Positions 7,708 to 30,980 of a stretch of DNA of 32,000 nt are shown here, piece after piece. Source of the DNA: Candidatus Omnitrophota bacterium (GTDB taxonomy: Bacteria; Omnitrophota; Gorgyraeia; Zapsychrales; JANLHA01); assembly GCA_963662715.1 (NCBI GenBank), contig OY759724.1, forward strand, positions 2,370,001 through 2,402,000, read 5' to 3'. The notes under the pieces were generated by a model that did no database searches, was not told the origin of the DNA, and saw only the letters and a program-made list of their open reading frames with translations. Each line of letters starts with the position of its first letter. The first letter of the stretch is position 1. Position numbers and translations under genes: made by a program.

Positions 7708-8139
7708 ATGTCACAAAATATTGAGACTATTGCAGATGAGTTGACTTTTGTCATGCCGCGCATCGTCAGAACCTTGACTTCCCGTTCTGCGCATTCTGTT
7801 AATCTGCCGCCTGCTCAGATTTTTGTTCTTTTAGAACTGCAGGAAAAAGAGATATGCCGGGTTTCTTCTCTAACAACGGCTTTGCATATATCCGCACCCA
7901 CTGTTTCGGGAATCGTGGACCGTCTGGAAAAGACAGGATACGTTTTTCGTGAGCAAGATAAAGAGGACCGCAGGGTGGTGAATATTAAATTAACACAAGC
8001 CGGGCAGGAAGCGGTCACTCAAATAAGACAGAGCATCAAAGAACGGTGGGGTATCATTCTGGAAAAAATACCTTTTGCGGATGCCGAGACATATTTGCGT
8101 ATCGTTAAACAAATTCAGGAACACTTGGAGTCATTATAA
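7708..8139 (+). CDS. MarR-family transcriptional regulator
   Basis: 143 aa. Winged-helix core LPPAQIFVLLELQEKEICRVSSLTTALHISAPTVSGIVDRLEKTGYVFREQDKEDRRVV is typical of MarR. Confidence 0.88.
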   Translation: MSQNIETIADELTFVMPRIVRTLTSRSAHSVNLPPAQIFVLLELQEKEICRVSSLTTALHISAPTVSGIVDRLEKTGYVFREQDKEDRRVVNIKLTQAGQEAVTQIRQSIKERWGIILEKIPFADAETYLRIVKQIQEHLESL

Positions 8140-8230
8140 AGGCGGCCTATCAAATGTGTTTGATTTTGACAGGGCCGATATCAAAGTTTTTGAAATATAT
8201 TTTTTTAACGCGTTAAACTGTTCCCCGGAT

Positions 8231-9757: not shown

Positions 9758-9761
9758 AAAA

Positions 9762-12700: not shown

Positions 12701-12902
12701 TTTGTTGTCGGTCGCTTACGGCTGGGGTGGAGGAGATCCTTTTTTAAAGCCGATGGCCTTGGCGATCATTTGGGGGCTGGGGTTTGCCACCGGCTTGACT
12801 CTCGTTGTCATCCCCTGCATCTACGCCATTGTCGATGATGTTTCCGAAAAGCTCTTTCATCACGGCACGGTTAAGCTGAACGGAATTAAGAAGAAAAGAT
12901 AG
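9762..12902 (+). CDS. RND efflux transporter permease (AcrB/AcrD/AcrF family)
   Basis: 1046 aa with the 12-TM, two-large-loop layout. N-terminus MKLAEFSVKNSLLVNLLSVFI...TITTAYPGA. Conserved GLIIVLGMLVDDGIIVAENV and GLVGLAGIVVNDSVVLVDF TM4/TM10 motifs. Starts 5 nt after the OMF stop. Confidence 0.93.
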   Translation: MKLAEFSVKNSLLVNLLSVFIICVGFVSMVQLRREAFPQVEFDVVTITTAYPGAPAEDVEKLVTTPIEKELKGISGIKEMTSNSEEGLSTIGIEIDPEAREKDKVIDDIERAVDRVKDLPEEIEDDPYIFELSADEFPIIEISVGGDHPEWERRKYAEALEDQLLDIDGVASVMRIAWRDKEFWVEVDPDKLQQYHVSMDEISDTLKTRNITLPGGPLTTPSMEYSVRISGEFRTPQEVEDVVIRANDAGHWLKIKDIARVVDTFEDETHIPKVNGKRSVSMVVVKSKQGDVITVVDSVKKVVAEFESALPEGMEIIITNDFSYYVKRRLNVLKMNGVIGIVLVLVVLFLFLDPVPAFMTALGLPIALFTTFGVMLVMDTSINLITMLGLIIVLGMLVDDGIIVAENVYRYIEQGMSPKEAAIKGTSEVIAPVTVTILTTCAAFMPLLFMKDILGKFIRFIPIIVMVALGSSLLEAFIILPSHLADFVKGHKFKSTHKDNPHKDRRWFHALLNFYTKVIHKALAFRYLVILMVFLTFVGSIFVAVKKMKVIMFTGEGIEEFHVRAEAPKGTPLEKLDELMIPVEKLIASLPEEDLDASRTYLGAIEEERGFDPNAKRGTHLGQIRVFLTPSQKRKRTPQEIIESLRPKLAEIEGFDRLYFHMPREGPPVGQPVEIGIKGDDFAVLEEIARKFMAALDDIEGVTDIVLGYEFGKKQLKIAVDENKAKQYDLSVGQVAATVRTAFDGTVATSIKPTKAEEEIDVLVRFPESVRNDRQKAFDRILVANSKGNLVPLSSVAEVREQEGLYKINHLEGKRVVYVTAQVDGKKATSLEVNFKIQNQFKNMSEQYPGYTVKYSGEFEEQQKTMLNLGRSFLIALFLIFIILAALFNSLVQPFIVLSAIPYGIIGVIFGFLTHHRPLSFFAFMGLVGLAGIVVNDSVVLVDFINQLRKSGKARRQSIVEAGQMRLRPVIMTTVTTIAGLLSVAYGWGGGDPFLKPMALAIIWGLGFATGLTLVVIPCIYAIVDDVSEKLFHHGTVKLNGIKKKR

Positions 12903-18623: not shown

Positions 18624-19613
18624 TTGAATATCGTCGTTGATGCTATGGGAGGGGATTATGCTCCGGCTGCGGTTGTTGAAGGAGTAGTTGAAGCCATCAA
18701 AGACTTTGAGATAAACGTAGTTCTGGTCGGTATTCAGGAACAAATCGAAGCAGAGTTAAAAAAATATTCTTATCCCCCCGAACGCCTTAACATCATGCAC
18801 GCTCCGGATGTGATCGGAATGCATGAGCCTGCCACTGTCAGCATCAGGAAAAAACGCAAATCATCCATTACCATGGGAATCAAGCTGCTGGAAGAGTCGA
18901 AGTATGACGCTTTTATCAGTGCCGGAAATACCGGAGCCGTTGTCGCCGCCTCAACCATCAACCTGGGCATGCTGCCCGGAGTGGAACGGCCCGGGATCGG
19001 GTTGGTCATCCCGACGCTCGACAGTTTTTCTTTTATGATCGATGTCGGAGCCAACACCGACCCCAAACCCAAGCATTTGCTGCAGTCGTCACTTATGGCT
19101 GTTGTCTACGCCCGGGAAGTCCTGGGGGTGCAGAATCCCCGGGTCGGGCTGCTTAATATCGGGGAAGAAGAATCAAAGGGTACGGACTTTGTGAAAGAAA
19201 CGCACCGGATGATGTCGGCGCGCCTTGATAATTTTGTCGGCAATATTGAAGCCAATGATATCTTTTCCGGACGGTGCAACTGCATCATCTGCGACGGCTT
19301 TGCCGGGAATATCGTCATTAAAGTCTCGGAACACCTTATGGAATCCGCTGCGACGCTTATCCGCCGGGAGATTAAGAAGAGCCCGCTGGCTTTGCTCGGC
19401 GCGTTCTTAATGAAAACCCGTCTGGAGCAGATTAAGCGTTATGCCGATTATTCGGAATACGGCGGCGCTCCGTTGCTGGGCGTGAACGGCCTGGTGATGA
19501 TCAGTCACGGACGCTCGAGTTCCAAGGCGATTAAGAACGCTATCCGGGCCGCGAAACGGGAAATCGAACATAATATCATTTCTATTATGATAAAGGAGAT
19601 AAAAGCTAAATGA
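18624..19613 (+). CDS. plsX: Phosphate acyltransferase PlsX
   Basis: 329 aa. IVVDAMGGDYAP, ISAGNTGA, GANTD and PLLGVNGLVMISHGRSS motifs. TTG start preceded by gggagaagg. Confidence 0.93.
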   Translation: MNIVVDAMGGDYAPAAVVEGVVEAIKDFEINVVLVGIQEQIEAELKKYSYPPERLNIMHAPDVIGMHEPATVSIRKKRKSSITMGIKLLEESKYDAFISAGNTGAVVAASTINLGMLPGVERPGIGLVIPTLDSFSFMIDVGANTDPKPKHLLQSSLMAVVYAREVLGVQNPRVGLLNIGEEESKGTDFVKETHRMMSARLDNFVGNIEANDIFSGRCNCIICDGFAGNIVIKVSEHLMESAATLIRREIKKSPLALLGAFLMKTRLEQIKRYADYSEYGGAPLLGVNGLVMISHGRSSSKAIKNAIRAAKREIEHNIISIMIKEIKAK

Positions 19614-20587
19614 GAAGTGTCGGAATTGTTGCCACAGGCTCTTTTGTGCCTGATAAAGTTTTAACGAATGCTGATTTAGAAAAGATGGTTGACACCTCGG
19701 ATGAATGGATATTAACCCGTACAGGCATTAAAGAACGGAGAATCGCCGAGAAGCACGAGCGGAACAGTTTTCTGGCCAGCCGGGCGGCCAAAGATGTCTT
19801 GGCCCGCTCTCCGGTCAAAGCGGAAGATATCGAGTTGATCGTCGTGGCTACCATCAGCCCGGACAGCCCTTTCCCGTCGGTTGCCTGTCTTGTTCAAAAA
19901 GAAATCGGTGCGAAGAAAGCCGCGGCTTTTGATGTCAGTGCGGCCTGTGCCGGTTTCCTGTATGCTTTGACGACGGCGAAACAATATATCCAGACGGGCC
20001 TTTATAACAATGCCCTTGTGATCGCGGCTGAAAAATTCACTTCCTTTATCGACTGGAACGACCGCAGCACCTGCGTTCTTTTCGGTGACGGGGCCGGGGC
20101 CTGTATGCTGGCTCCTGTTGAAGACGGTAAAGGTATTGTCTCAGACCATCTTTTTTCCCAGGGGGATTCGGCAGAGCTTATGGCGGTGATCGTTGAGGAC
20201 CGGGAGCCTCTTAACCAGCAGAATACCATGATGCGTATCCCTTATGTGGAGATGCGCGGCCAGGAATTGTTTAAAGTCGCTGTCACATCCATGGCTGATG
20301 TCGCAAAGCTCGCTTTGCAAAAAGCCGGAGTCGGCATCGAGGACGTCGATTGCCTCGTGCCTCATCAGGCGAACGACCGGATTATTTCTGCCGTTGCCAA
20401 GAGGCTGGGGGTGCCCAAGGACAAGTTTTATATCAATATCCACCGTTACGGAAATATGTCGGCCGCTTCTTTGGCTGTCGCGCTGCACGAAGCCATTGCG
20501 GAAGGCCAGATTAAAGAAGGTTCTAACGTCGTATTGGCTGCCTTTGGTGCCGGACTCGTATCAGCCGCCAATGTCGTGAAGTTCTGA
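19610..20587 (+). CDS. fabH: 3-oxoacyl-ACP synthase III
   Basis: ATGA overlap with plsX. Catalytic Cys in AACAGFLYAL, His in VPHQAN, Asn in YGNMSAAS. Confidence 0.95.
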   Translation: MRSVGIVATGSFVPDKVLTNADLEKMVDTSDEWILTRTGIKERRIAEKHERNSFLASRAAKDVLARSPVKAEDIELIVVATISPDSPFPSVACLVQKEIGAKKAAAFDVSAACAGFLYALTTAKQYIQTGLYNNALVIAAEKFTSFIDWNDRSTCVLFGDGAGACMLAPVEDGKGIVSDHLFSQGDSAELMAVIVEDREPLNQQNTMMRIPYVEMRGQELFKVAVTSMADVAKLALQKAGVGIEDVDCLVPHQANDRIISAVAKRLGVPKDKFYINIHRYGNMSAASLAVALHEAIAEGQIKEGSNVVLAAFGAGLVSAANVVKF

Positions 20588-20747
20588 TTTGAGCGGCAAG
20601 CCCGAAGAGCCGTCCGTCCCGGATGCCGGTTTTTGCCCGGGCGGCCCCGCCGCAACTCTCATTTCGGACTTGAAATTCCCAGGACGCGAACGAAGAGATG
20701 ATATTCACCAGAGGGCACAACACGGCTAAAATCCGGAAAGGACATTT

Positions 20748-21659
20748 ATGAAAAAAGCTGCTTTTATATTCCCCGGCCAGGGCGCCCAGTACGTCGGTAT
20801 GGGCAAGGCGTTATATGACGCTTCCCCTGAGGCTAAAACTGTTTTTGAACAGGCGGACAAAATTTTAGGAAAGGACTTAACGCGGGTCATCTTCGAAGGC
20901 CCCGATGAAACCCTGATGTCCACGGCGTATTGCCAGCCGGCGATATTGACGGTGAGTTTTGCTGCGGTGAAGGCTTTGCAGGCGCGGGATATTCGGCCGG
21001 AGTTTGTCGCCGGATTGAGCCTGGGTGAACTGTCGGCTCTTGCCGTGAGCGGAGCGTTAAGCTTTGAAGAAACGCTTAAGCTGGTTGAGCGCCGGGCCGC
21101 TTTTATGGAGGAGGCGACAAAACTCAATGCCGGAAAAATGGCCGCGGTCATCGGCCTGGAAAAACAGCAGATTGCTGATGCCTGTCAGGCGACGGGCGCC
21201 GAGGTCGCCAATTTTAATTCTCCGCAGCAGATCGTCATTACCGGGCATGCGGATAAAGTGGATGCGGCCTGCCGGGTGCTTAAAGAGGCCGGAGCGAAAA
21301 ACGTTGTCGTGCTGGACGTGGCCGGAGCTTTTCATTCAAGCTTGATGCAGACGGCGGAAGATAAATTTAAAGAGGAACTGCAGCAATATGATTTTAAGCC
21401 GGCGAGCATCCCGATTGTTTCCAACGTGGACGCCAGACCGGCTGTCCGGCCCGAAGTGATCCGAAGTAATCTTGCGCGGCAAATTACATCTTCTGTCCAG
21501 TGGGTCGATTCGGTGAACTTTATGGCCGGGCAGGGGGTGGAGTCTTTTTTTGAGGTCGGTCCCGGGAAAGTCCTGAAAGGATTAATGCGGCGGATCAATA
21601 AGGGCTTGACGGTGCAGAATATTGAAAAGCCGGAAGACATTGCGGCACTTGACCTTTAG
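20748..21659 (+). CDS. fabD: Malonyl-CoA:ACP transacylase
   Basis: FIFPGQGAQYVGMG, active-site GLSLGELSAL, GAFHS. Confidence 0.95.
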   Translation: MKKAAFIFPGQGAQYVGMGKALYDASPEAKTVFEQADKILGKDLTRVIFEGPDETLMSTAYCQPAILTVSFAAVKALQARDIRPEFVAGLSLGELSALAVSGALSFEETLKLVERRAAFMEEATKLNAGKMAAVIGLEKQQIADACQATGAEVANFNSPQQIVITGHADKVDAACRVLKEAGAKNVVVLDVAGAFHSSLMQTAEDKFKEELQQYDFKPASIPIVSNVDARPAVRPEVIRSNLARQITSSVQWVDSVNFMAGQGVESFFEVGPGKVLKGLMRRINKGLTVQNIEKPEDIAALDL

Positions 21660-21861
21660 CCCTCCCGAAATAATCCGCGTCACTTATCCCGCAAAAAGAT
21701 GCAGCTGTGATAAGGAAGAGGCTTCTGCGCTTATTTTTTCCCGCGGAGCTGATTTTTTTTGTGTTTTTCTGACCCGAATATGTTTTTTTTACCCTGCATT
21801 TTAAAAACCACTTCTTTTATCTCAATTGTTGAAAATTTTGTTATAATAATTACGAATTATC

Positions 21862-21891
21862 TTGACGGTAAATAGACATCACTACTATAAT
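21862..21891 (+). promoter_or_regulatory. Candidate sigma70-type promoter for the FabZ-like/KAS operon
   Basis: TTGACG (21862-21867), 18-nt spacer, TATAAT (21886-21891), in an AT-rich 260-nt gap after fabD. 27 nt upstream of the ATG at 21919. Confidence 0.4.
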
Positions 21892-21918
21892 TAAAAATAT
21901 TAGTAGTAAGTTTACTAT

Positions 21919-22371
21919 ATGTCGCAAAAAATTAATAATTATCAGTTGCATAAAATCCTTCCGCACACTTATCCTTTTCTTTTAATAGACTATGTAGAAA
22001 AATTTACGAAAGGGAAAAACCTCACAGCCATTAAAAATATTACGGTCAACGAATGGCCGTTTACAGGCCGGGTCAATTTCTCTAACCGCTACCCGGAAAT
22101 ACTGCTGATAGAAGCGTCCGCTCAGGCCGCATTGGTTTTGTATTATTTGACTTTTGAAGATGACCCGAACCGCCCGTTGCCGATTATCGGCCGGGTCGCG
22201 GCGGAGTTTGCCGGGGATGTCTCTGCGGGGGATCAGGTCAGAATCGAAGTGACCGGCGGGAAGTATATGCGAAAAGGAGGGTATTCGTTTATTGATATCT
22301 TTCACGATCAGCAGGTTTTGGCGCGGATTAAAATTATTTACGGAGTCTTACCCAGGAAAAGAACGTTATGA
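21919..22371 (+). CDS. FabZ/FabA-like hotdog-fold protein with catalytic His replaced by Arg
   Basis: LPHTYPFLLIDYV...AIKNITVNEWPFTGRVNF...ILLIEASAQA aligns position-for-position with E. coli FabZ LPHRFPFLLVDRV...NEPFFQGHFPG...LILEAMAQA. The His of GHFP is Arg51 (cgg, 22069-22071). The Glu is retained. Confidence 0.8.
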   Translation: MSQKINNYQLHKILPHTYPFLLIDYVEKFTKGKNLTAIKNITVNEWPFTGRVNFSNRYPEILLIEASAQAALVLYYLTFEDDPNRPLPIIGRVAAEFAGDVSAGDQVRIEVTGGKYMRKGGYSFIDIFHDQQVLARIKIIYGVLPRKRTL

Positions 22372-22490
22372 TAAAAGCCGTCCAATCCCCTAAAAGACGC
22401 GTTGTGGTGACCGGGCTGGGCGTTGTGTCCTCTATCGGCATAGGCTGGCAGGAATTCTGGAAGAATATTATTGCCGAAGAATTTACCTGA
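22368..22490 (+). pseudogene. 40-codon N-terminal remnant of a beta-ketoacyl-ACP synthase (not in ORF track)
   Basis: My translation is MIKAVQSPKRRVVVTGLGVVSSIGIGWQEFWKNIIAEEFT*. ATGA overlap with the FabZ-like stop. Residues 12-31 are identical to residues 8-27 of the intact KAS at 23717. It then diverges and stops. Confidence 0.8.
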
Positions 22491-22568
22491 ATTTGTTGTA
22501 GATTTAGAGTAAAAAATTTTTTGTAACCTTGGGTGACTTATAAAAGAACTCAAAAGAGAGGGGTAAAG

Positions 22569-23720
22569 ATGTTCAATGATGTAGAATCAAAGATTAAAGC
22601 TATTTATAATAAAAAGTATTATGAGGTTTTTCATCTAGGGAAGGTTTTTACCGTGGAACTTGTGCGGAAGATATTAATCGAATCTTTAATTGTAGAAAAA
22701 TTATCTCAAAAAGAAAGTACATTGCAACAAATTAAAGATGAATTAATATTTGCTGATAATTCAATCCCCGCATTAAGATGGCTGATGGAGTTTGCCTGTG
22801 AAGAAGAATTAATTAATAAAGAATTTTTCAATGAAGAATGGAGATATTCTTTAAAAGGAGAATTTTTAAAAAGAGACCTACAGTTACTTGCTAATAATAT
22901 TTTAGATCTTGATCCTGGTTGGAAGACATTTATTCAGTTGATGCGGATAGTTGCTGATGATTATCCATTATTTTTTAAAGGAAAAAAGACTGGAATAGAA
23001 ATTTTATTTGCAAAAGACCGCGCTCATTATTGGGATGCTTATTTTGGAAACGTTTATAGTGCGTATACTGCTTATAATGAGTTTGGGGCTTTATTAGCTT
23101 CAGAAGTTATTGCTTTGAAAGAACATCCTTTAATTTTAGAAATAGGCGCGGGAACGGGAGGTGCGACTGAAAAGTTGCTAGATTTATTGAAAAAAAGAGA
23201 CCTTTTGTCGAGAATGAGTCAATATATTTACTCTGATATTTCTCCTCTTTTTTTGAGAACTGGAAATAAAGTTTTGATGAGATATCTTGGCCCTGATATG
23301 GATTATGATTTATTTAAAGTAGATTTTAACAAATCTTTCACAAATCAAAAAATTAAAGAAGAAAGTGTTGATGTTGTGTATGGTGTAAATGCCTTGCATG
23401 TATCGAAGAATTTATTGCAAACATTGAATTCTATAAAAGAGATATTAAAACCAGAAGGATATTTAGTTGTTTGTGAGGTTATTCGATCTCAAAAAAACAA
23501 ACCGTTATTTTTAGAACTCATTTTTAACATATTAGATTCATATACACAAGTTGATATTGATCCCGATTACAGATTTTCTCATGGCTTTTTAACCTTTGAA
23601 GAATGGAAACGTGCTTTAGAAATAGCAGGTTATGCTAAGGTTGAAATTTATGATAATGTTTGTGGCAATTCCCAGGAAAAACAGGAAATAATAGCCGGTG
23701 TTATTGTGGGACAAAAATGA
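22569..23720 (+). CDS. Class I SAM-dependent methyltransferase (Methyltransf_12 / PKS C-methyltransferase-like) with ~180-aa N-terminal helical extension
   Basis: Motif I ILEIGAGTGGATEKLL, post-I YSDISP, VVYGVNALHVSKNLLQTLNSIKEILKPEGYLVVCE. Start set at the ATG at 22569, preceded by gagagggg. The track start 22533 is a GTG. Confidence 0.8.
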   Translation: MFNDVESKIKAIYNKKYYEVFHLGKVFTVELVRKILIESLIVEKLSQKESTLQQIKDELIFADNSIPALRWLMEFACEEELINKEFFNEEWRYSLKGEFLKRDLQLLANNILDLDPGWKTFIQLMRIVADDYPLFFKGKKTGIEILFAKDRAHYWDAYFGNVYSAYTAYNEFGALLASEVIALKEHPLILEIGAGTGGATEKLLDLLKKRDLLSRMSQYIYSDISPLFLRTGNKVLMRYLGPDMDYDLFKVDFNKSFTNQKIKEESVDVVYGVNALHVSKNLLQTLNSIKEILKPEGYLVVCEVIRSQKNKPLFLELIFNILDSYTQVDIDPDYRFSHGFLTFEEWKRALEIAGYAKVEIYDNVCGNSQEKQEIIAGVIVGQK

Positions 23721-24925
23721 TTATGAAAGAAAAAAAAGTTGTTGTTACAGGGCTAGGAGTTGTTTCCTCTATTGGTATAGGTTGGCAGGAATTTTGGGGG
23801 AATCTTTTAGCTGGGAAATCAGGGATTAGCAGGGTATCTTCTTTTGATACTTCAGAATATGATCGTCATAATGCTGGAGAAGTAAAGATTTTTAAATCAA
23901 GAAAATTTATTGCTGAAAAGAAATCTAAAAGATTGGGCAGATCTTCCCAAATGGCTATAGCTGCGAGTTTGCTTGCTCTAGAAGATGCGAAAATAGTCGT
24001 TAACGATCAAATATCTAAGAAAGGAATTGTCTGTGTCGGCACGACAACAGGAGAAATCGGGATTTTTATTAAATATCATGATAATAAATTTAGAGGTGAA
24101 GTAAAATTTGACTCTAATCTAATATCTGTTTTTCCTGCGAACTCAGTTGCCTCAAATATTGCTATTCAAAATGATTTTCGAAGTCAAAATATTACTTTTG
24201 GCACAGCATGTGCCTCGGGTAATTATGCAATATCTTACGCATTTGATTTAATTAAATCTGGACAGGCTGATTATGCTTTGGTCGGTGGTAGTGATGTCTT
24301 TTCAAGAATGGTCTTTGCGGGATTTTGTAAATTATTTGCAGTTGCCCCCCAGATGTGCCAACCTTTTGATAAGAATAGGAAAGGTATGATCCCAGCAGAG
24401 GGAGCTGGGTGCCTTTTTTTAGAATCTCTTATGTCTGCGAAGGAACGAAATGTAGATATATATGCAGAGATTTTGGGATACGGATTGTCTTGTGATGCTT
24501 TTCATATGACTAAGCCTTCACCAGAGGGAATCTTTAAGGCAATTAAAAAAGCAATCGTGAATTCTGATATTTCACCATCTGATATTGATTATGTTTCTGC
24601 ACATGGCACGGGTACTAGAGAAAATGATATTGCCGAGTGTGCGGCAGTAAAGAAAATATTGAAGAACAATGTTCCTATGAGTTCAATAAAATCAATGTTA
24701 GGCCATACTTTGGGAGCTGCTTCTGCTATTGAAGCTATCTCTTGTTGTTTATCCGTTTCTACGGATCAGATTCCCCCAACTATAAATTATGAAACTCCCG
24801 ACCCGTTATGTGATGTTGACTGTGTGCCGAATGTTAGTAGAAATAAAAAAGTACGAGTGGTATTGAATAATTCGTTAGCTTTTGGGGGAAATAATTGTTG
24901 CGTGATTTTTAAAAAAATTGATTAG
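23717..24925 (+). CDS. Beta-ketoacyl-ACP synthase, elongating (FabF/FabB-like, Cys-His-His) of a non-housekeeping subfamily
   Basis: KKVVVTGLGVVSSIG, active-site Cys in GTACASGNYA, His in VSAHGTGT and SMLGHTLGAAS, C-terminal AFGGNNCCVIFKK. ATGA overlap with the methyltransferase stop. The track start 23660 lies inside the upstream gene. Confidence 0.88.
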   Translation: MIMKEKKVVVTGLGVVSSIGIGWQEFWGNLLAGKSGISRVSSFDTSEYDRHNAGEVKIFKSRKFIAEKKSKRLGRSSQMAIAASLLALEDAKIVVNDQISKKGIVCVGTTTGEIGIFIKYHDNKFRGEVKFDSNLISVFPANSVASNIAIQNDFRSQNITFGTACASGNYAISYAFDLIKSGQADYALVGGSDVFSRMVFAGFCKLFAVAPQMCQPFDKNRKGMIPAEGAGCLFLESLMSAKERNVDIYAEILGYGLSCDAFHMTKPSPEGIFKAIKKAIVNSDISPSDIDYVSAHGTGTRENDIAECAAVKKILKNNVPMSSIKSMLGHTLGAASAIEAISCCLSVSTDQIPPTINYETPDPLCDVDCVPNVSRNKKVRVVLNNSLAFGGNNCCVIFKKID

Positions 24926-24945
24926 TTAAAAAGTGGTGAGAATCT

Positions 24946-26046
24946 ATGAAAAAAGCCGCAATGTTGTTTCATCCCCCGAATTTGACAATTGTTGATGAAA
25001 CCGTTGTCAAGGTTATGCCTTTTTTAAAGAATTTATACTCTCGTATTTCAGAAATTAAGAAAAAAAATTTTTTTAGAAGATGTCCACCCTTTAAATTTTT
25101 TAATGTTGATAATTTTGAGTCAGTAACTGGGAAAAAGATTGGATTACTTGGGGTTATGCTTCCGTGGTTCCCAGAACAATTAGTGTCTGGAGATCGTCAA
25201 GTAGTTCAAAAAGAAATTCTTAAAGCAATTTCTTTGGCAAAAAAGAATAAAGCAGAAATTATTACTTTGGGGGCTTTTACATCTATAGTAACGAATCAAG
25301 GGAAAGATTTGGTTGGGAAAACACCCATTGCAATAACTAGCGGAAATACTTATACGGCAGCTTTGTGTATCCGTTCTATTTTTGAAATATGTCAAAAATT
25401 AGAGGTTGATTTAAATAAGGTCAGCTTATGTATTGTTGGGGCAACTGGAGATATTGGTAGTATGTGTGCGAAAGTCCTTTCAAAATATGTTAAGAAATTA
25501 ATTTTATGTTCAAGAAGTATTTCAAACACAAGTGAAATTGTTGTTGAGATTGAGAGAAATATGAACAAAAGGCCAATCATTATGAATCAGCAAGATGAGG
25601 CAGTTAGAGAAGGCGACATTATTATTAGCGCAACTAGTTCGTGGGGGTTGTTATTTAATCATTTAGATTTAAAGCCTGGGACGATATTATGTGATATCTC
25701 TATGCCGCCGAATGTCGCTAGAAATATTCGAAAGGAACGAAAGGATATTTTAGCTTATTCAGGGGGAAGAGCACAGTTTTTAAATTTTATGCATATCAAG
25801 AATCCTATTTGGAAGGCAATGTTTCCTACTAATAATATATATGGTTGTATGGTAGAATCACTAATTTTGGCATTAGAAGATAGATTTGAGAATTTTTCTT
25901 TGGGAAGAGCCACTTCTGATGAGAAAAAAATAGACGAGATATATGACTTGGGGATAAAACATGGTTTTTCTCTAGCAAAATTTAATAATTTTAATTATAT
26001 TTATTCAATAGAAGATTTTAATTATATCAAATCAATTTTACATTAA
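24946..26046 (+). CDS. Acyl-ACP reductase (cyanobacterial AAR)-like NAD(P)-dependent reductase
   Basis: LGAFTSIV, ITSGNTYTAALC, VGATGDIGSMCAKVL (Rossmann), IYGCMVESLILALE (Cys301 at 25846-25848), NFSLGR...IDEIYDLGIKHGF. These parallel AAR blocks LGGFTSII, TTGNTHTAYV, VGATGDIGSAV, FACFAEAMLLEFE, NFSWGR...ASVRHGF, which I recalled from memory. Confidence 0.7.
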   Translation: MKKAAMLFHPPNLTIVDETVVKVMPFLKNLYSRISEIKKKNFFRRCPPFKFFNVDNFESVTGKKIGLLGVMLPWFPEQLVSGDRQVVQKEILKAISLAKKNKAEIITLGAFTSIVTNQGKDLVGKTPIAITSGNTYTAALCIRSIFEICQKLEVDLNKVSLCIVGATGDIGSMCAKVLSKYVKKLILCSRSISNTSEIVVEIERNMNKRPIIMNQQDEAVREGDIIISATSSWGLLFNHLDLKPGTILCDISMPPNVARNIRKERKDILAYSGGRAQFLNFMHIKNPIWKAMFPTNNIYGCMVESLILALEDRFENFSLGRATSDEKKIDEIYDLGIKHGFSLAKFNNFNYIYSIEDFNYIKSILH

Positions 26047-26051
26047 TAATT

Positions 26052-28247
26052 ATGATAGGTAATTTAGAGAATATATTATCAATAGCCACTTTTGTGACAT
26101 TTTTGTTGTTTTTAGTGTTAGCCATTTTCCTTGTTACAAAAAATATAAGATCCTCCACCAATATTTCTTTTTCTCTCGTTTGTGTAAGTGCCTCAATTTG
26201 GTCTTTAAACTATTCAATAGCATACAGATCTGTCGATACTGATGTAGCTTTATTTTGGTTTAAGATAGGATATGTTGGAGTTATGTTTATTGCTATTACT
26301 TATTTTCATTTTGCGATAGTCTTTCTAAGACTAAAGAACATGTTCAAATATGTAAGCTTAAACTATATAGCAGGAATTTTCTTAACAGGGCTACTTTTAA
26401 ATTCTAATATGCTTATTAGTGGCCTTAATGTATTTTCTTGGGGAAGATATCCGAAGGCCGGAAGTTTGCACCCGATCTTTTTGTTGTATTTTTTTGCATT
26501 AGTAAATATCGCAACGATTCAATTAGCAGTAGCTTTTATCAAAAAAAGGAAGACAATTCCTTTAACGCAGGTTCAGCAGCTAAAATATATATTGTTCGCT
26601 TTTAGTATTTATACAATAAATTCTATAGATTTCATTCCTAATTATGGAATTAGTATCCTCCCTGTCGGGTTCATCCCGGCAACGATTTTTATGAGTATAA
26701 TCGTTTATAGTATTGTTAAATTCCGCCTGATGGATATCTCCGTCGCCATCACTCGTACAAGTATTTTCGTCGCAGTTTATTCTCTTGTCCTTGGTATTCC
26801 TTTTGCTCTTGCCTTTGGGTGGCGTGCCCGTCTGCAGAATATTCTGGGGGAGGGGTGGTGGTTGGCGCCTTTAGTTAGTTCTACGGTTTTAGCCACAGCC
26901 GGGCCGTTTATTTATCTTTACATCCAGAAAAGAGCGGAAAACCGCCTGTTCCAGGAGCAGAAAAGGTATCAATCCACCTTGAGGCAGGCTTCGGCCGGTA
27001 TGGGCCGGATAAAAGATTTAAACCGTTTGGTGAACTTGATCGTCCACATCGTCAGCAGGACTGTCCGCTTGGAACATGCTTTGGTGTATTTGCAGGACCC
27101 GCAGACGCGGACATATGTTTTAAAGGCTCATCGAAGCCGGGCTGTAAGGTTCAAAACCCAGGATGTTATCGAGAGTAATTCAGAAATTGTCAAAGTGTTA
27201 AACCGGGAGCGGGAGCCTGTCGTCTATGAGGAGATTAAACAGCAGACCCAGGATTACGGGGATTTGAAGCTGGCCCGTTTGGAAACGGAATTAGCCGCTA
27301 TTAATGCTGCTTTGGTGGTGCCTTGTTATATTGATGAAAAATTGCTGGCGATGATTATCCTCGGCAGAAAGATGTCGAATGATTTATATTCTGAAAGCGA
27401 CCTTGCTGTTTTCTCCATCCTGGCTAATCAGGCGGCCTTGGCCATGGAAAATGCGATGTTTTATGAAGAAATGAAAAACACCCATGCCCAGCTTATGAAA
27501 GCGGAAAAAATGGCAACGATCGGGACCATGGCGGACGGGCTTTCCCATCAGATTAATAACCGCCTTCACGCCTTGGGCTTTATTGCCGGAGATGCTCTGG
27601 ATACGATAAAGTACAAAAAAGACGTGCTTATGAAAGACCCGGAAGTGAAGGAAATTATGGTTGACCTGGAGCATGCTTTGAATAGAATAGAGGATAATGT
27701 GACGCAGGGCGGAGAAATTGTCCGGGGCTTGTTGAAATATACCCGTAAGGGAGAGGAAGGCTTTTCCGATCTGGAGTTTGACCAGCTGATCAATGCTTCT
27801 GTGGAGATGACCCAATTTAAGATCAAGCCGGGAGAGCTGCAGATCTTAAGAGAGTACGGCGCGGACATTCCGAAAATAAAGGGGAATTTTACCCAGCTTC
27901 AGGAAGTGTTCTTTAACCTCATTGATAATGCTTATGATGCGATGATGCAGAGGAAAGCCGAGCTTAAAGAAAAAGAATATAGCCCGACGATTAAGATTTT
28001 CGCTCAGGGGGATAATAACGGCGGGATAAATATCCGCTTTGAAGACAACGGGATCGGTATTAAGGACGAAGATAAGATGAAGCTTTTTACCCCGTTCTTT
28101 ACGACGAAATTATCGAGTAAGAAAGGCACGGGGCTGGGCCTTTATGTCATTCAGAAGCTGATCGAAGAAAATCATGAAGGGAAAGTCGCCTACAGTTCCG
28201 TGTATCAGCAGGGGACGAATGTATCGATTTATCTTCATTCTGTTTAA
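26052..28247 (+). CDS. Sensor histidine kinase: N-terminal 7TM sensor region, GAF, HisKA, HATPase_c
   Basis: 731 aa with ~7-8 hydrophobic helices in the first ~290 aa. GAF-like segment LVNLIVHIVSRTVRLEHALVYL...AALVVPC. H-box MADGLSHQINNRLHAL, N-box FNLIDNAYDAM, G-boxes EDNGIGI and GTGLGLYV. Starts 5 nt after the AAR-like stop. Confidence 0.88.
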   Translation: MIGNLENILSIATFVTFLLFLVLAIFLVTKNIRSSTNISFSLVCVSASIWSLNYSIAYRSVDTDVALFWFKIGYVGVMFIAITYFHFAIVFLRLKNMFKYVSLNYIAGIFLTGLLLNSNMLISGLNVFSWGRYPKAGSLHPIFLLYFFALVNIATIQLAVAFIKKRKTIPLTQVQQLKYILFAFSIYTINSIDFIPNYGISILPVGFIPATIFMSIIVYSIVKFRLMDISVAITRTSIFVAVYSLVLGIPFALAFGWRARLQNILGEGWWLAPLVSSTVLATAGPFIYLYIQKRAENRLFQEQKRYQSTLRQASAGMGRIKDLNRLVNLIVHIVSRTVRLEHALVYLQDPQTRTYVLKAHRSRAVRFKTQDVIESNSEIVKVLNREREPVVYEEIKQQTQDYGDLKLARLETELAAINAALVVPCYIDEKLLAMIILGRKMSNDLYSESDLAVFSILANQAALAMENAMFYEEMKNTHAQLMKAEKMATIGTMADGLSHQINNRLHALGFIAGDALDTIKYKKDVLMKDPEVKEIMVDLEHALNRIEDNVTQGGEIVRGLLKYTRKGEEGFSDLEFDQLINASVEMTQFKIKPGELQILREYGADIPKIKGNFTQLQEVFFNLIDNAYDAMMQRKAELKEKEYSPTIKIFAQGDNNGGINIRFEDNGIGIKDEDKMKLFTPFFTTKLSSKKGTGLGLYVIQKLIEENHEGKVAYSSVYQQGTNVSIYLHSV

Positions 28248-28295
28248 TGTCATGTGTTAATATAAAATGCAGTTGTTATTAGAAAGGATAGGGAG

Positions 28296-28661
28296 ATGCC
28301 CAAGCTGTTGATCGTTGATGATGAGATGGATATACGCGAATTCGCGAGAAACTTTTTTAAAAAAAGAGGCATAAACGTGTTCACGGCCAGCGGTGGCGGT
28401 GATGCTTCGGAAATCATTGAGAACGAAAAGCCCGATTTGATTCTGCTGGATGTGCGTATGGAAGAGATCACCGGGGTGGAGCTGCTTAGAGATATCCGGC
28501 AGAAAGGGAATGATACAAAAGTTATTATGGTAAGCGGGGTGGAAGATGATTCTATCATTGACGAATCAAAAACACTGGGAATTTTGGGTTTTATTCATAA
28601 ACCGCTTATTTTGGATGAGCTGGAGAAGATCGTTTTAAAAGAGCTCCAGCAAGAGCAGTAA
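28296..28661 (+). CDS. Stand-alone response regulator receiver (CheY-like)
   Basis: KLLIVDDE, DLILLDVRM (phospho-Asp), VIMVSG, FIHKP. No output domain. Confidence 0.9.
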   Translation: MPKLLIVDDEMDIREFARNFFKKRGINVFTASGGGDASEIIENEKPDLILLDVRMEEITGVELLRDIRQKGNDTKVIMVSGVEDDSIIDESKTLGILGFIHKPLILDELEKIVLKELQQEQ

Positions 28662-28724
28662 CTCTTCAATGAATATCTCGTCTGAAAACCCAAACACATT
28701 TTTCCTTGAATAGATCATATCGTT

Positions 28725-29921
28725 ATGGCTATGACAAAGCATAAGAGAATCGATTATAAAAGAGAGCTGGAGGCCGCCAGCAAGGGCATGATCATGATCC
28801 ATGACCCGAAGCTCCTGATCAAGCTCATTGTGCGTATGATCGTGAATAAAGTCATGATCAAGCATGCCGGTATGATCCTTTATGAACCGGAGAAAGACGC
28901 TTATGTGTTAAGCATTTCCCGGGGGGAGACGGGGTTTAAAGTCCCGGCGGGGTTTGCCCGTTTTAGCACAAACCATTCGGTTATCAAATTATTTACCGAA
29001 AAAGAATACCGGGCGCTTACCATAAACAAGAATGCCATTCTTGTCCAGGATCTCAACAGGCTGATCTGGCAGGAGAGTATCCTGAACAGTAAAAACGGCA
29101 ATCAGCAGCTTCTGCATGACGTGGGGGAGCAGATGCAGATGTTTAATGCGGTTGCTTGTGTTCCGGCTTATTATCAGGACAAGTTGCTCGCCGTCCTGTT
29201 GCTGGGCGAGAAGAACGACGGCAACAGCTTTGATCAGGAAGAACTGGATTTTTTTGCTGCTTTAGCTTCGGATGTCGCGATGGCTATCCGGAACGCCCAG
29301 CTGTTTATGGATCTTAAACGGGAGTCGGAAAAGAACCATGACTTGTTTCTCAGGACGATGATGGTTTTAGGGCAGGCGATTGAAGTTAAAGACAAATATA
29401 CACATGGCCATACCAAAAGGGTGACGGATTTTGCCGTTGCCATTGCCAAGCAAATGATCCTTAACGGATCGGCGGATTTTGATGACGTTTTCCTGGAGGA
29501 TTTGTATATCGCCGGAATGCTGCATGATATCGGGAAGATCGGGGTGCCGGAAGAAGTCCTTAACAAGAATGGCCGGCTCTCAAAAGAGGAATATGAAATT
29601 ATCAAGCTTCATCCCCAGTACGGCGTGGAAATTTTATCCCCGCTGTCTGAATTGAAGCAGAGTCTGGACGGAGTCCATTACCACCACGAAAGGTATGACG
29701 GTGCCGGCTACCCGGAAGGGTTGAAGGGAGCCGAAATCCCGATCGTGGCGATGATCATTTCTGTTGCAGATGCGTTTGACGCGATGACGACCGACCGTCC
29801 TTACCGCCCGGGCATGACAAAAGGACAGGGTGTTGAAGAAGTCAAGAGAAACTCCGGGACCCAATTTCACCCCAAGCCTGTCCAGGCCTTAGTCGAATTG
29901 TTCGAAATGGGCCGCTTGTAA
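28725..29921 (+). CDS. GAF domain-containing HD-GYP phosphodiesterase (c-di-GMP hydrolase family)
   Basis: GAF-like N-terminal half (ACVPAYYQDKLLAVLLLGEK). HD-GYP half has THGHTKRV, MLHDIGKIGVP, HHERYDGAGYPEGL and DAFDAMTTDRPYR. Confidence 0.9.
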   Translation: MAMTKHKRIDYKRELEAASKGMIMIHDPKLLIKLIVRMIVNKVMIKHAGMILYEPEKDAYVLSISRGETGFKVPAGFARFSTNHSVIKLFTEKEYRALTINKNAILVQDLNRLIWQESILNSKNGNQQLLHDVGEQMQMFNAVACVPAYYQDKLLAVLLLGEKNDGNSFDQEELDFFAALASDVAMAIRNAQLFMDLKRESEKNHDLFLRTMMVLGQAIEVKDKYTHGHTKRVTDFAVAIAKQMILNGSADFDDVFLEDLYIAGMLHDIGKIGVPEEVLNKNGRLSKEEYEIIKLHPQYGVEILSPLSELKQSLDGVHYHHERYDGAGYPEGLKGAEIPIVAMIISVADAFDAMTTDRPYRPGMTKGQGVEEVKRNSGTQFHPKPVQALVELFEMGRL

Positions 29922-30030
29922 ATGAGCATATTGTGATGACTTTCTTCTTATGAGGTGGGGTGGATAAGATGGCCGGGGAGTTTGATCTGAAACTCTGTTT
30001 CGAAAGAATCATTAAAAGGCAGATTTTAAA

Positions 30031-30393
30031 TTATGTTGTTAGGTTTTTTCTCACCACGCTCAGAATTTCTTCCGCCTTAAATGGTTTAACGACATAGCCG
30101 TCAGCACCTAATTTTACAGCTTCCGTAGCTGTCTCCTCAGACGCATAGATGGTCACCATAATAACTCCCACGCCGGGATAATCATTTTTGATGTGTTTAA
30201 GTATTTCCAGCCCATTGCTGCTTGGCATTTTGATATCCAGCAGAACCAGGCCAATCTCCTTGTCGTTCGCAAGGCAGTCAAGGCCTTGTCCGGCGTCTTC
30301 TGTGACAATCAGTTCATAAAAGTCACTGAGAATCAACTTAAGTGACTCCCGTACTCCTTCTTCGTCATCAATGATTAAAATTTTTTTTGACAT
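30031..30393 (-). CDS. Stand-alone response regulator receiver (CheY-like)
   Basis: KILIIDDEE, LVLLDIKMP, IMVT, VVKPF. Start set at the Met of MSKKIL (30393), where GGAGG sits 5 nt upstream on the coding strand. The track start 30405 falls within that RBS. Confidence 0.88.
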   Translation of the reverse strand: MSKKILIIDDEEGVRESLKLILSDFYELIVTEDAGQGLDCLANDKEIGLVLLDIKMPSSNGLEILKHIKNDYPGVGVIMVTIYASEETATEAVKLGADGYVVKPFKAEEILSVVRKNLTT

Positions 30394-30428
30394 TGGGGCC
30401 TCCATAATTTTAAAAAATAAGGGATAGG

Positions 30429-30980
30429 TTATAATTCTACCGGAGTCGTAACAGAGATCAATTTAGCCGGTCCGCTGCCGGTATTCTCAACAAAATGCTT
30501 AAGCGTGGCATTAAAATACAATGTATCATTGGGTTTAAGGGGGTGGCTTCTTTCTCCTACATGCAGGATGAGTTCTCCCTCCAAGATAAAGATGAATTTT
30601 TCCGTGCCGGGACGGTTTTGCTCGAGACTTGTCCTGCCGCCTTCCTCGATACGTAAGACAACAGGCAGCATTTTTTTGTTCATGATATTTCCTGTTAGAA
30701 TTTCATAGGAAGCTTTGTCGTTGTAAGTGAATGATTCGGGGGCGTCCCCGAGCTCGGCCTGAACCATTGATTTTTGCGTGGTTTCAACCCCTTTATATAG
30801 CTCAATCAGGTCAACACCCAGGGCTTGGGCTATCCGCATATGAGATTCCAGCGTGCCGGTCATTTTCATGTGTTCGATCCGGCTTAGGGTTGCAATCTGA
30901 ATTCCGCTTTTTTCGGCCAGATCTTTTAATTTTAAATTTTTTGCTTTCCGCAATTCTTTTATTTTCTTTCCTAGTTCCAT
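30429..30980 (-). CDS. XRE-family HTH transcriptional regulator with C-terminal cupin domain
   Basis: N-terminal HTH_3 LGKKIKELRKAKNLKLKDLAEKSGIQIATLSRIEH. C-terminal cupin GTEKFIFILEGELILHVG...DTLYFNATLKHFVENTG. Confidence 0.88.
   Translation of the reverse strand: MELGKKIKELRKAKNLKLKDLAEKSGIQIATLSRIEHMKMTGTLESHMRIAQALGVDLIELYKGVETTQKSMVQAELGDAPESFTYNDKASYEILTGNIMNKKMLPVVLRIEEGGRTSLEQNRPGTEKFIFILEGELILHVGERSHPLKPNDTLYFNATLKHFVENTGSGPAKLISVTTPVEL

Follow-up and report, generated by a model that had tools for sequence, protein, structure and literature searches.

We describe a reductase gene, 24946..26046, and the operon that contains it, in a stretch of 32,000 nt from a Candidatus Omnitrophota genome (contig OY759724.1; the whole stretch is called the window below). 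The explanation that best accounts for the results as a whole, to which we give a probability of roughly 0.6, is that the gene encodes an aldehyde-releasing enzyme of the type represented by cyanobacterial acyl-acyl carrier protein (acyl-ACP) reductase (AAR) and PigE's N-terminal domain (PigE-N), that this enzyme belongs to a small module derived from fatty acid synthesis (FAS), and that it is exchanged between genomes together with the seven-transmembrane (7TM) sensor domain of the histidine kinase encoded next to it. The evidence comes from the homology and predicted structure of the protein, from a 4.25-kb replaced block in the window that contains the gene, and from the way in which the equivalent blocks vary among related loci.

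Identity of the reductase

The window reductase is similar to AAR along its whole length, as the initial annotation had stated. A phmmer search of the PDB aligned residues 42-342 with residues 33-335 of Synechococcus elongatus AAR (6jzq/6jzu; 84 bits, E 8.8e-23), and the AAR equivalog model TIGR04058 matched with 115.3 bits (E 3.7e-33). The sequence blocks on which that annotation relied are all present: LGAFTSIV at 108-115, SGNTYTAA at 132-139, VGATGDIGS at 164-172, and YGCMVES, which places Cys301 opposite the catalytic Cys294 of AAR (FACFAEA) and Cys296 of PigE (NGCMAET). Identity with AAR over trimmed alignment columns is 28%. A model made with AlphaFold2 from an alignment of 30 family sequences (pLDDT 91.7) has a three-domain fold, whose best structural matches are AAR structures 6jzy and 6jzu (TM 0.79-0.85, 24-26% identity), followed by the carmabin TAD (Foldseek TM about 0.7).

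Cys301 is invariant in the 30 aligned family members, and G165-A-T-G-D-I-G171, R190, F111/S113, T131/G133/N134, C249/D250 and E304 are invariant or nearly so. R190, which does not vary in the family, is at the end of β2. We take the enzyme to be cysteine-dependent and probably NADPH-using; we infer both cofactor and substrate. R190 follows β2 at the point where TADs carry an NAD-specifying Asp. The C-terminal extension of about 25 residues (343-366) that had been remarked on does exist, but it is not peculiar to this protein: it is shared across the family with the consensus LAxFxCGxxxYSxEDxxxIK, and order is predicted for it, the model placing a strand at 341-343 and a helix at 355-365 (pLDDT about 93-95).

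Alignment, profile and phylogenetic comparisons thus give significant homology to AAR but place the protein outside the AAR clade, and its description as cyanobacterial-type does not stand. The TIGR04058 score falls well short of the curated cutoff of 449.7 bits. PigE is the better match, both in NCBIfam (NF053554, positions 15-340, 165.5 bits, E 1.8e-48) and in the PDB, where 4ppm is the top match with 112 bits and its Cys aligned. In a rough neighbour-joining tree, in which cyanobacterial AAR is represented by one sequence, the window protein and others with the same type of gene neighbourhood (type B, described below) form their own clade, S. elongatus AAR groups with proteins from a soil type of neighbourhood (type C), and PigE is a long separate branch. 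The mechanism of AAR has been described, together with the residues R73, R79, K80 and R118 of the S. elongatus enzyme that form salt bridges to the aldehyde-deformylating oxygenase (ADO) (PMC9743570). These correspond to D83, K89, E90 and G124 in the window protein, with the loss of three of the four basic residues, two of them to acidic ones. Because the TIGR04058 cutoff is missed, the ADO-contact residues are lost and the clade is separate, we conclude from the sequence comparisons that the protein is not an AAR ortholog, and that it shares a superfamily (COG5322) with PigE-N and the C-terminal domain of KecF. That it is a thioester reductase we regard as very probable.

We note that relatives of the protein are labelled ‘shikimate dehydrogenase’ or ‘predicted amino acid dehydrogenase’ in the source databases. 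The shikimate/amino-acid dehydrogenase annotation was considered for the window protein and rejected: the protein reaches 22 bits with the shikimate dehydrogenase equivalog, whose cutoff is 221, and there is no match to a shikimate-binding N-terminal domain.

The gene lies between a β-ketoacyl-ACP synthase (KAS) gene and a histidine kinase gene, as had been reported. No match to ADO or other ferritin-like proteins, to FAR or to aldehyde dehydrogenase families was found among the scanned open reading frames (ORFs) of the window, which agrees with the initial annotation as regards ADO, and no ADO-like gene was found within 8-10 kb in the type-B loci whose neighbours are annotated. Aminotransferases are likewise absent from the window and from the type-B loci, and the window reductase is not fused to another domain. 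The context is also non-cyanobacterial, as had been proposed, the flanks being syntenic with metagenome-assembled genomes (MAGs) of Candidatus Omnitrophota. The initial annotation had seen in this an AAR separated from its normal partner; the assumption that AAR-like enzymes go together with ADO is, however, outdated. The PigE N-domain is an off-loading thioester reductase in prodigiosin synthesis (PMC8341465), KecF is an off-loading reductase in synthesis of koreenceine by a type II polyketide synthase (PKS) (PMC6498172), and transaminase-AAR fusions occur in type II PKS alkaloid clusters (PMC6498172, PMC10829540). Because stand-alone relatives are widespread (at least 573 species genomes) and the off-loading role is already published, the presence of a predicted AAR-like enzyme without ADO in a non-cyanobacterium is true but ordinary for the superfamily. 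The enzyme is a new, stand-alone clade member of a superfamily whose kind of role is already known.

The replaced block and its variation between loci

Related loci are labelled L001-L169. The closest relative of the window in its flanks is L168, with protein identities of 82% for the cytoplasmic part of the kinase, 82.5% for the REC protein and 87% for the HD-GYP protein encoded downstream. In a blastn comparison the two are collinear over 19652-22465, from fabH through a stump of a KAS gene, and again over 26718-29873; in between, only 24667-24906, the 3' end of the intact KAS gene, aligns. The right edge of this gap, 26718, is codon 223 of the kinase. The stump, 40 codons long, encodes a KAS N-terminus (KRRVVVTGLGVVSSIGIGWQEFW). 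Its nucleotides 22401-22460 are identical to 23738-23797 of the intact KAS gene at 50 of 60 positions; read from the printed alignment, with codon positions untabulated, the mismatches are mostly changes from G/C to A/T at third codon positions, and the GC content at third positions (GC3) is 0.56 in the stump against 0.25 in the intact gene. Because the remains of a resident KAS gene are present, and because 22466-26717 is non-homologous between conserved flanks, we conclude that a block of 4.25 kb was imported, displaced the resident genes and left the KAS stump behind.

Base composition also sets the block apart. The GC content falls to about 34% across 22-27 kb of the window. Within the block GC3 is 0.17-0.35, compared with 0.5-0.65 outside it; taken gene by gene, it is 0.22-0.31 for the methyltransferase, KAS, reductase and the first 250 codons of the kinase, and 0.5-0.62 for the fabH, fabD, hotdog, REC and HD-GYP genes. 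The rise is sharp and falls within the kinase coding sequence, near codons 240-270, where the 7TM domain ends.

The coordinates of the block and of the other features are given in Table 1. The best PDB matches of the methyltransferase are the DisA C-methyltransferase (C-MT), AprA MT2, CurJ C-MT, PsoF, and the citrinin and LovB CMeT domains. It is absent from L001-L165. We considered whether it is unique to the window genome and rejected this, since a 43%-identical homolog is found at the equivalent position in L169, between a dehydratase (DH) gene and a KAS gene. The KAS scores 400 bits with TIGR03150 (cutoff 494 bits), and its PDB matches are 9s5h_B (457 bits), the ketosynthase (KS) of the ishigamide type II PKS (6kxd, 320 bits) and FabF (about 288 bits). 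Its Cys-His-His triad is intact, and the motifs TACASGNYA, SAHGTGT and GHTLGAASA all align. Chain B of 9s5h, its closest solved relative, was crystallised with a second KS-like protein, chain C. The kinase gene starts 5 nt past the stop codon of the reductase. The cluster in the window has no ACP, acyltransferase (AT) or ketoreductase (KR) of its own.

Table 1. Features of the window around the reductase gene; the last row gives genes in related loci, in the coordinates of those loci.
Feature	Position	Strand	Details
plsX-fabH-fabD, housekeeping FAS	18624..21659	+	Pfam FA_synthesis, ACP_syn_III, Acyl_transf_1; GC3 0.57-0.60, native composition
Best sigma-70-like promoter match	21862..21891	+	TTGACG-18-TATAAT, 11/12; 28 nt before first operon gene; AT-rich intergenic; consensus match only
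FabZ-like hotdog protein	21919..22371	+	Pfam FabA and NCBIfam FabZ, both below cutoff
KAS remnant, 40-codon 5' stump of resident ketosynthase	22368..22490	+	overlaps hotdog stop codon, as KAS does in relatives
AT-rich replaced block, 4.25 kb	22466..26717	+	C-methyltransferase, KAS, AAR-like reductase, 7TM sensor part of kinase
PKS-type C-methyltransferase, stand-alone	22569..23720	+	383 aa from ATG with ribosome-binding site; Pfam Methyltransf_12
FabF-like ketosynthase	23717..24925	+	Pfam ketoacyl-synt N and C; start overlaps methyltransferase stop codon
AAR-superfamily (COG5322) acyl-thioester reductase (predicted), stand-alone	24946..26046	+	366 aa; nucleophile Cys301; Rossmann GATGDIG 165-171
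Sensor histidine kinase	26052..28247	+	Pfam: HisKA_7TM aa 13-229 (nt 26088-26738), GAF aa 321-466, H-box, HATPase aa 614-729
Response regulator, single-domain REC	28296..28661	+	Pfam; syntenic in relatives
GAF and HD-GYP protein	28725..29921	+	motif HHERYDGAGYP; Pfam HD_5, HD, GAF; 87% identical to L168 counterpart
Divergent REC gene	30031..30405	-	Pfam; synteny with relatives
HTH-cupin regulator gene	30429..30980	-	Pfam; synteny with relatives
bAvd-type genes	L001 6447-6812; L006 13326-13703, 15496-15882; L021 20277-20681; L167 11991-12362; L169 14309-14695		

We then surveyed the gene neighbourhoods of the family by calling and clustering ORFs in 165 related loci, which fall into four types. 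The window belongs to type B, which occurs in Omnitrophota, in one Rhodocyclaceae MAG and in Planctomycetia, in about 22 distinct loci. Type B has the order: at least one FabF-like ketosynthase, the reductase, a kinase of about 720 residues with the domains HisKA_7TM-GAF-HATPase, a REC protein and a GAF-HD-GYP protein; the opposite strand encodes a second 7TM kinase, a REC protein and an HTH-cupin regulator. A KAS gene is adjacent to the reductase in every type-B locus. In 22 distinct loci the AAR-like gene has an ortholog of the kinase downstream, immediately next to it in 16 and beyond other biosynthetic genes in 6. The minimal arrangement in Omnitrophota is hotdog-KAS-reductase, and extended versions include a FabG-like KR, an ACP and a DH that contains the His, along with a second or third KAS, a nitroreductase, and CrtI-like FAD oxidoreductases, of which there are one or two.

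The compositional step is general. Mean GC3 over the 22 loci is 0.355 for the reductase and 0.386 for kinase codons 1-240, compared with 0.694 for kinase codons 300 to the end and 0.638 for the downstream genes; in all 22, the reductase and kinase codons 1-240 lie below both of the latter (Wilcoxon p = 5e-7). The block is AT-rich in every genome, even in low-GC ones (L005: 0.26 vs about 0.40). The intragenic step was also seen individually in L002, L021 and L006, where the 5' edge varies, being either inside the KAS gene or exactly at the start of the reductase. One possible source of the AT-richness is repeated import from low-GC donors; another is that the segments have diverged too far to recombine and so have lost the GC-favouring effect of recombination, and a third is selection on codon usage.

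Sequence divergence is concentrated in the same segment. In 47 pairs of loci in which the cytoplasmic kinase part is at least 70% identical (mean 76%), the REC protein has a mean identity of 74% and the GAF-HD-GYP protein 82%, while the reductase ranges over 36-72% and the 7TM domain over 26-81%. In these pairs reductase identity and 7TM identity co-vary with each other (r 0.54-0.62) more than either does with that of the cytoplasmic part (r 0.22-0.26). L104 and L106, for example, have flanks that are 77-88% identical, with 81% for the cytoplasmic kinase part and 88% for HD-GYP; their reductases are 36.5% identical and their sensors 41%. In the comparison of L095 with L119 the values outside the block are 93% for KAS1, 81% for a REC-domain protein and 75% for the downstream REC, and those inside it are 56% for KAS2, 51% for the reductase, 62% for ACP, 56% for DH, 60% for KAS3 and about 35% for the sensor. 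Differing cassettes lie between flanks that are 80-88% identical (L104/L106, window/L168 and L095/L119), in MAGs that may belong to one species or to several. We also observed that in L095, L102, L105, L119 and L122 a REC-domain protein of 332-334 residues is encoded between two KAS genes (about 5.8-6.8 kb in L095), and that it is 81-85% identical in comparisons of loci in which the biosynthetic genes further downstream share only 50-70%.

In two loci the AAR-like reductase itself is replaced. The slot after KAS in L168 and L167 is occupied by a terminal thioester reductase of the short-chain dehydrogenase/reductase (SDR) type (PF07993, 175 and 149 bits), whose best PDB matches are the thioester reductase (TR) domain of MxaA (105 bits), a PKS TR and the R-domain of a carboxylic acid reductase (CAR). 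The next genes encode a nitroreductase and a CrtI-like enzyme, and the 7TM domain that comes after these is quite different. L167 also has, beside its functional-looking SDR reductase gene, a degenerate AAR-like gene at 313-1257, truncated to 314 residues and 26% identical, in which LGAFTS is deleted and the catalytic Gly-Cys has become Ala-Pro. Because two unrelated families of thioester reductase occupy one position, the predicted function of the slot, reductive thioester release, receives independent support, and the head-group chemistry of the predicted product is among the features that vary between cassettes. A reciprocal search with the 7TM domain gave 20 matches, many of them fragments; of the three contexts that were read, a sample too small to give a frequency, two belonged to the syntenic locus and the third had no relation to it.

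The remaining genes of the operon and window are as follows. The genes from 21919 to 29921 are separated by 5-63 nt or overlap, with a promoter-like site before the first, and by this spacing are one tightly packed transcription unit. The hotdog protein at its start has lost the catalytic His of PDB FabZ (GHFP to GRVN), and has PE in place of PG, with the Glu of LEAxAQ retained. The His is lost in all nine minimal clusters, the window included, and GHFP is kept where the cluster has its own KR and ACP; the His-less protein may act not as a dehydratase but as a subunit for binding or gating. The plsX-fabH-fabD genes just upstream have the same arrangement in L001, L021, L168 and L169. At the other end, the GAF-HD-GYP protein is presumed from its motifs to be a cyclic di-GMP (c-di-GMP) phosphodiesterase and the output of the system. 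In L001, L003, L005, L021 and L168 the HD-GYP gene is separated from the divergent REC gene by a minus-strand gene for a second histidine kinase of about 540 residues, which has a 7TM domain in at least L001 and L003. In the window this interval is just 110 bp (29922-30030), indicating that the second kinase has been deleted here.

The window opens with an rRNA operon (3' part of 16S, tRNA-Ile, tRNA-Ala, 23S and 5S), after which come a GGDEF-GAF-PAS protein, MarR, a TolC-like protein, an RND pump, an EamA transporter, RecG, RsmD, CoaD, YceD and PlsX-FabH-FabD. This order of genes recurs around the orthologous cluster in MAGs of Candidatus Omnitrophota (L002, L021 and L169). The first of these proteins is a large MORN-PAS-GAF-GGDEF diguanylate cyclase (5057-7549), followed by the MarR/TolC-like/RND efflux set at 7708-12902; the window accordingly encodes enzymes both for making c-di-GMP (GGDEF) and for breaking it (HD-GYP, 28725). 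Genes for a four-helix-bundle protein of the 23S rRNA intervening sequence/bAvd type recur in or beside the related loci (Table 1), with none in the window. They may be hitch-hiking elements, or may be related to diversity-generating retroelements.

Proposed function and alternative explanations

A sequence of steps can be proposed for the module. Because the cluster has no ACP, AT or KR of its own, acyl-ACP and malonyl-ACP would be supplied by the housekeeping FAS, with plsX-fabH-fabD as the presumed source. The FabF-like KAS would extend the borrowed acyl-ACP by one or more C2 units, and in this genome the C-MT would probably α-methylate the resulting β-ketoacyl-ACP, which is an established substrate class of PKS C-MTs. 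The acyl chain would then be moved to Cys301 and reduced by NADPH to give a free fatty or polyketide aldehyde; the residues for this are in place, and the chemistry is that expected of the family. We think it likely that the reductase is the release enzyme of the KAS module in this way. The aldehyde, or something derived from it, could partition into the membrane and be detected by the 7TM domain of the kinase, which would phosphorylate REC, with GAF-HD-GYP adjusting c-di-GMP. That the adjacent kinase senses the product of the module is the likeliest meaning of their joint exchange, though we give it somewhat less than even odds. As an alternative last step, the sensor would monitor a membrane lipid made by the module.

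Tentatively, these genes might be taken as an undescribed system of cell-cell or self signalling by lipids in Omnitrophota, some Planctomycetia and Rhodocyclaceae. The product of the module, a lipid aldehyde or a related head-group variant, would be read by the co-encoded 7TM kinase, with REC and HD-GYP as output, and the jointly diversifying cassettes of enzymes and sensor would be lipid ‘pherotypes’ akin to the peptide ones of agr and comQXP; the release enzyme would be the AAR-like reductase or, in other alleles, the SDR reductase or a second ketosynthase. In a variant suggested by analogy, the reductase would dock on the 7TM domain and pass its hydrophobic product straight to it, in the way that AAR serves ADO. 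We found no published work bearing on the locus under HisKA_7TM, Omnitrophota quorum sensing or PDB 9S5H, and the unit as a whole (a hypervariable, AT-rich, recombining block of lipid/polyketide genes and 7TM sensor on a conserved REC/HD-GYP scaffold) appears to be undescribed.

Several results count against an aldehyde-releasing enzyme that is exchanged together with the sensor of its product. The 47 pairs of loci are not mutually independent, and in a Mantel test over the 22 loci the reductase correlates with the 7TM domain at r 0.57 and with the catalytic part of the kinase at r 0.70, so that co-variation is not separated from shared phylogeny. Relaxed selection or reduced recombination, instead of import, could account for the low GC3. 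In L169 the slot is occupied by a second KAS and there is no reductase, and L166 has a 35%-identical 7TM kinase without any biosynthetic genes. For this clade the activity is a prediction; in the case of PigE, reductase activity proved difficult to demonstrate with the purified enzyme (PMC8341465), and TAD domains, which are related, may use the equivalent Cys for chemistry that is not reductive (bioRxiv 10.1101/2024.10.28.620694). Finally, a cluster without its own ACP and KR, and with a hotdog protein without catalytic His, leaves the released intermediate undefined.

Other explanations have to be weighed against the same results. The first is that the module supplies a component of structural or other envelope lipids, for instance the fatty aldehyde or alcohol of ether- or plasmalogen-like lipids, that the two-component system only regulates the module or monitors the state of the membrane, and that the locus varies in the manner of O-antigen or capsule loci, with imported low-GC blocks between conserved flanks, under pressure from phages or predators. 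The position of the cluster directly after plsX-fabH-fabD would suit this, as would the AT-rich hypervariable block between conserved flanks, which is also a signature of surface-structure loci. L167 has genes for an MGDG-synthase-like glycosyltransferase and a lipid A acyltransferase just downstream, and the CrtI-like/FabF/FabZ/ACP set of the extended clusters (ACP-FabZ-FabF-FabF'-CrtI-like) resembles the candidate ladderane cluster kuste3603-3607 of anammox bacteria (PMC4790861). However, no acyltransferase, AGPS or alcohol-forming gene is conserved in the type-B loci, and a second KAS, which can occupy the slot, would yield no comparable building block for a membrane. Nor does a structural lipid account for the position of the block edge, which in all the loci examined falls within the kinase gene where the 7TM domain ends, unless the lipid is what the sensor reads, in which case this explanation merges with the exchange of enzyme and sensor that we prefer. 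We regard it as unlikely.

A second explanation, which we consider improbable, is that of a specialised-metabolite cluster, making a toxin, an antibiotic or a pigment precursor (for instance a polyene or alkaloid aldehyde), with the two-component system as an ordinary pathway regulator. PigE-N and KecF-C, the closest characterised relatives of the reductase, do release aldehydes in antibiotic pathways (PMC8341465, PMC6498172), the KAS is nearer to the KS of the highly reducing ishigamide type II PKS than to FabF, and a PKS-type C-MT is present. The type-B loci nevertheless lack a fused or adjacent aminotransferase and have no conserved transporter or resistance gene, and replacement of the sensor domain along with the enzymes would be unexpected for a generic regulator.

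It is very improbable that the protein is a shikimate, quinate or amino-acid dehydrogenase, or that it carries out TAD-like non-reductive chemistry such as amidation. The database names would suggest the former, as would the fact that PF01488, an NAD-binding domain at residues 152-263, is its sole Pfam match, and the TAD is a structural relative at TM about 0.7; but PF01488 covers just the Rossmann domain while the whole chain matches AAR and PigE-N, and TADs are C-terminal domains of non-ribosomal peptide synthetases (NRPSs) with an NAD-specific Asp; the window protein, by contrast, is free-standing, follows a KAS and carries an invariant Arg behind β2. A genuine alkane-pathway AAR with its ADO encoded elsewhere in the genome is hardly credible, since the full-length homology and AAR fold, in a window that is 32 kb of a 3.36-Mb contig, are set against a score of 115 bits where 449.7 are needed, altered ADO contacts (PMC9743570), a separate clade and the annotated type-B neighbourhoods (8-10 kb), in which no ADO-like gene was found.

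Relatives in other phyla and comparison with known systems

The superfamily is widely distributed. A scan with one genome per species gave at least 573 confirmed relatives, in Omnitrophota, Negativicutes, Clostridia, Armatimonadota, Chloroflexota and others. An exhaustive profile search gave 2445 clusters at 50% identity with E <=1e-3, and 239 with E <=1e-30; among the 2445 are many proteins of 500-780 residues in which the reductase domain is C-terminal.

The other types of neighbourhood differ from that of the window. In type A (Firmicutes and Armatimonadota, 30-34% identical to the window protein) the order is birA-coaX-dus-HTH-[307-aa partner]-AAR-like-greA-lysS. In about 49 loci (L012, L014, L017, L018, L020, L022, L026, L030 and others) this AAR-like subfamily is always preceded by a protein of 300-330 residues without a Pfam match, and the two form a widespread conserved gene pair inside a run of housekeeping genes. 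In Chloroflexota (L015, L019, L044, L049, L053 and L062) the AAR-like gene is followed by a REC-GGDEF gene and then by giant multi-GAF histidine kinases of 1500-2900 residues, which is a second, independent link of the enzyme family to two-component and c-di-GMP signalling. The soil type, C (L141-L165), has the order GNAT-KR-AhpC/TSA(231 aa)-AAR-like, followed by a P450 or a 368-residue protein, and it is the AAR-like members from these loci that group with cyanobacterial AAR in the neighbour-joining tree. The 231-residue neighbour, equal in length to ADO, was considered as a candidate ADO and rejected, since it belongs to the AhpC/TSA (peroxiredoxin) family.

The results matter in several ways. 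They correct a common mis-annotation as ‘shikimate dehydrogenase’ or ‘amino acid dehydrogenase’, and they extend the role of the AAR superfamily as stand-alone aldehyde-releasing enzymes to uncultured phyla, which may interest those searching for biocatalysts for fatty aldehydes and fatty alcohols with new chain or branch specificity. They show lipid-biosynthesis genes and the membrane sensor of a kinase being replaced wholesale between close genomes, even with non-homologous reductases. A testable class of ligand is assigned to the uncharacterised HisKA_7TM sensor family. If the genes do encode a signal and its receptor, this would be the first candidate communication system for Omnitrophota, a rare case of pherotype-like diversification via lipid chemistry, and a natural library of matched small molecules and 7TM sensors.

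Of the enzymes with which the window reductase can be compared, cyanobacterial AAR (S. elongatus orf1594; 6JZU/6JZY; TIGR04058) shares its three-domain fold, about 300 collinear residues, GATGDIG and the Cys at the position of C294, and presumably the ping-pong chemistry through an acyl-enzyme. It differs in having only 24-28% identity, in lacking the ordered 25 residues at the C-terminus, and in its partner, which is a deformylating oxygenase rather than a ketosynthase and a histidine kinase. PigE-N, from the MAP pathway of prodigiosin (NF053554; 4PPM), is the best match in sequence, has the conserved Cys (C296), and acts in reductive thioester release as an aldehyde. PigE, however, is a fusion with the class III aminotransferase to which the aldehyde passes, while the window protein is free-standing, and the Rossmann motif of PigE is degenerate (VGYPGSI) where that of the window protein is canonical. 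KecF-type fusions, compared here by their descriptions, are alike in that an AAR-like reductase works with discrete KS, ACP and reductases of a non-canonical type II PKS/FAS; they differ in being fusions, in making an alkaloid antibiotic, and in that their clusters have no linked 7TM kinase and no reported cassette variation. The TAD of CarI and related NRPSs (PDB 9E4S), which belongs to domains related to the COG5322 superfamily (bioRxiv 10.1101/2024.10.28.620694), has a related two-domain fold with an invariant Cys beside the nicotinamide (TM about 0.7). It is a C-terminal NRPS domain, NAD-specific and 18% identical to the window protein, and is a weaker structural match than AAR.

At the level of the locus there are two useful comparisons. 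The Rpf/DSF system of Xanthomonas (RpfF, RpfC and RpfG) encodes together the production of a small FAS-derived lipid, a membrane sensor kinase and an HD-GYP output. The window locus likewise has FAS-type genes, a membrane kinase and HD-GYP; it differs in having no RpfF-type crotonase, in that its HD-GYP is joined to GAF and not to REC, and in its sensor family, HisKA_7TM.

The second comparison is with agrBDC of staphylococci and comQXP of Bacillus, in which a hypervariable segment comprises the signal-making genes and the membrane sensor of the kinase, the cytoplasmic kinase and the flanks are conserved, and recombination exchanges the block. The block described here similarly spans biosynthetic genes and the sensor domain of a kinase between conserved flanks. 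The signals of agr and comQXP are ribosomal peptides, whereas the candidate system seen here has lipid/polyketide enzymes of varying content and an output through REC and HD-GYP. By analogy, then, the architecture of the block would parallel the specificity regions of agr and comQXP, and its composition would parallel that of O-antigen-type loci.

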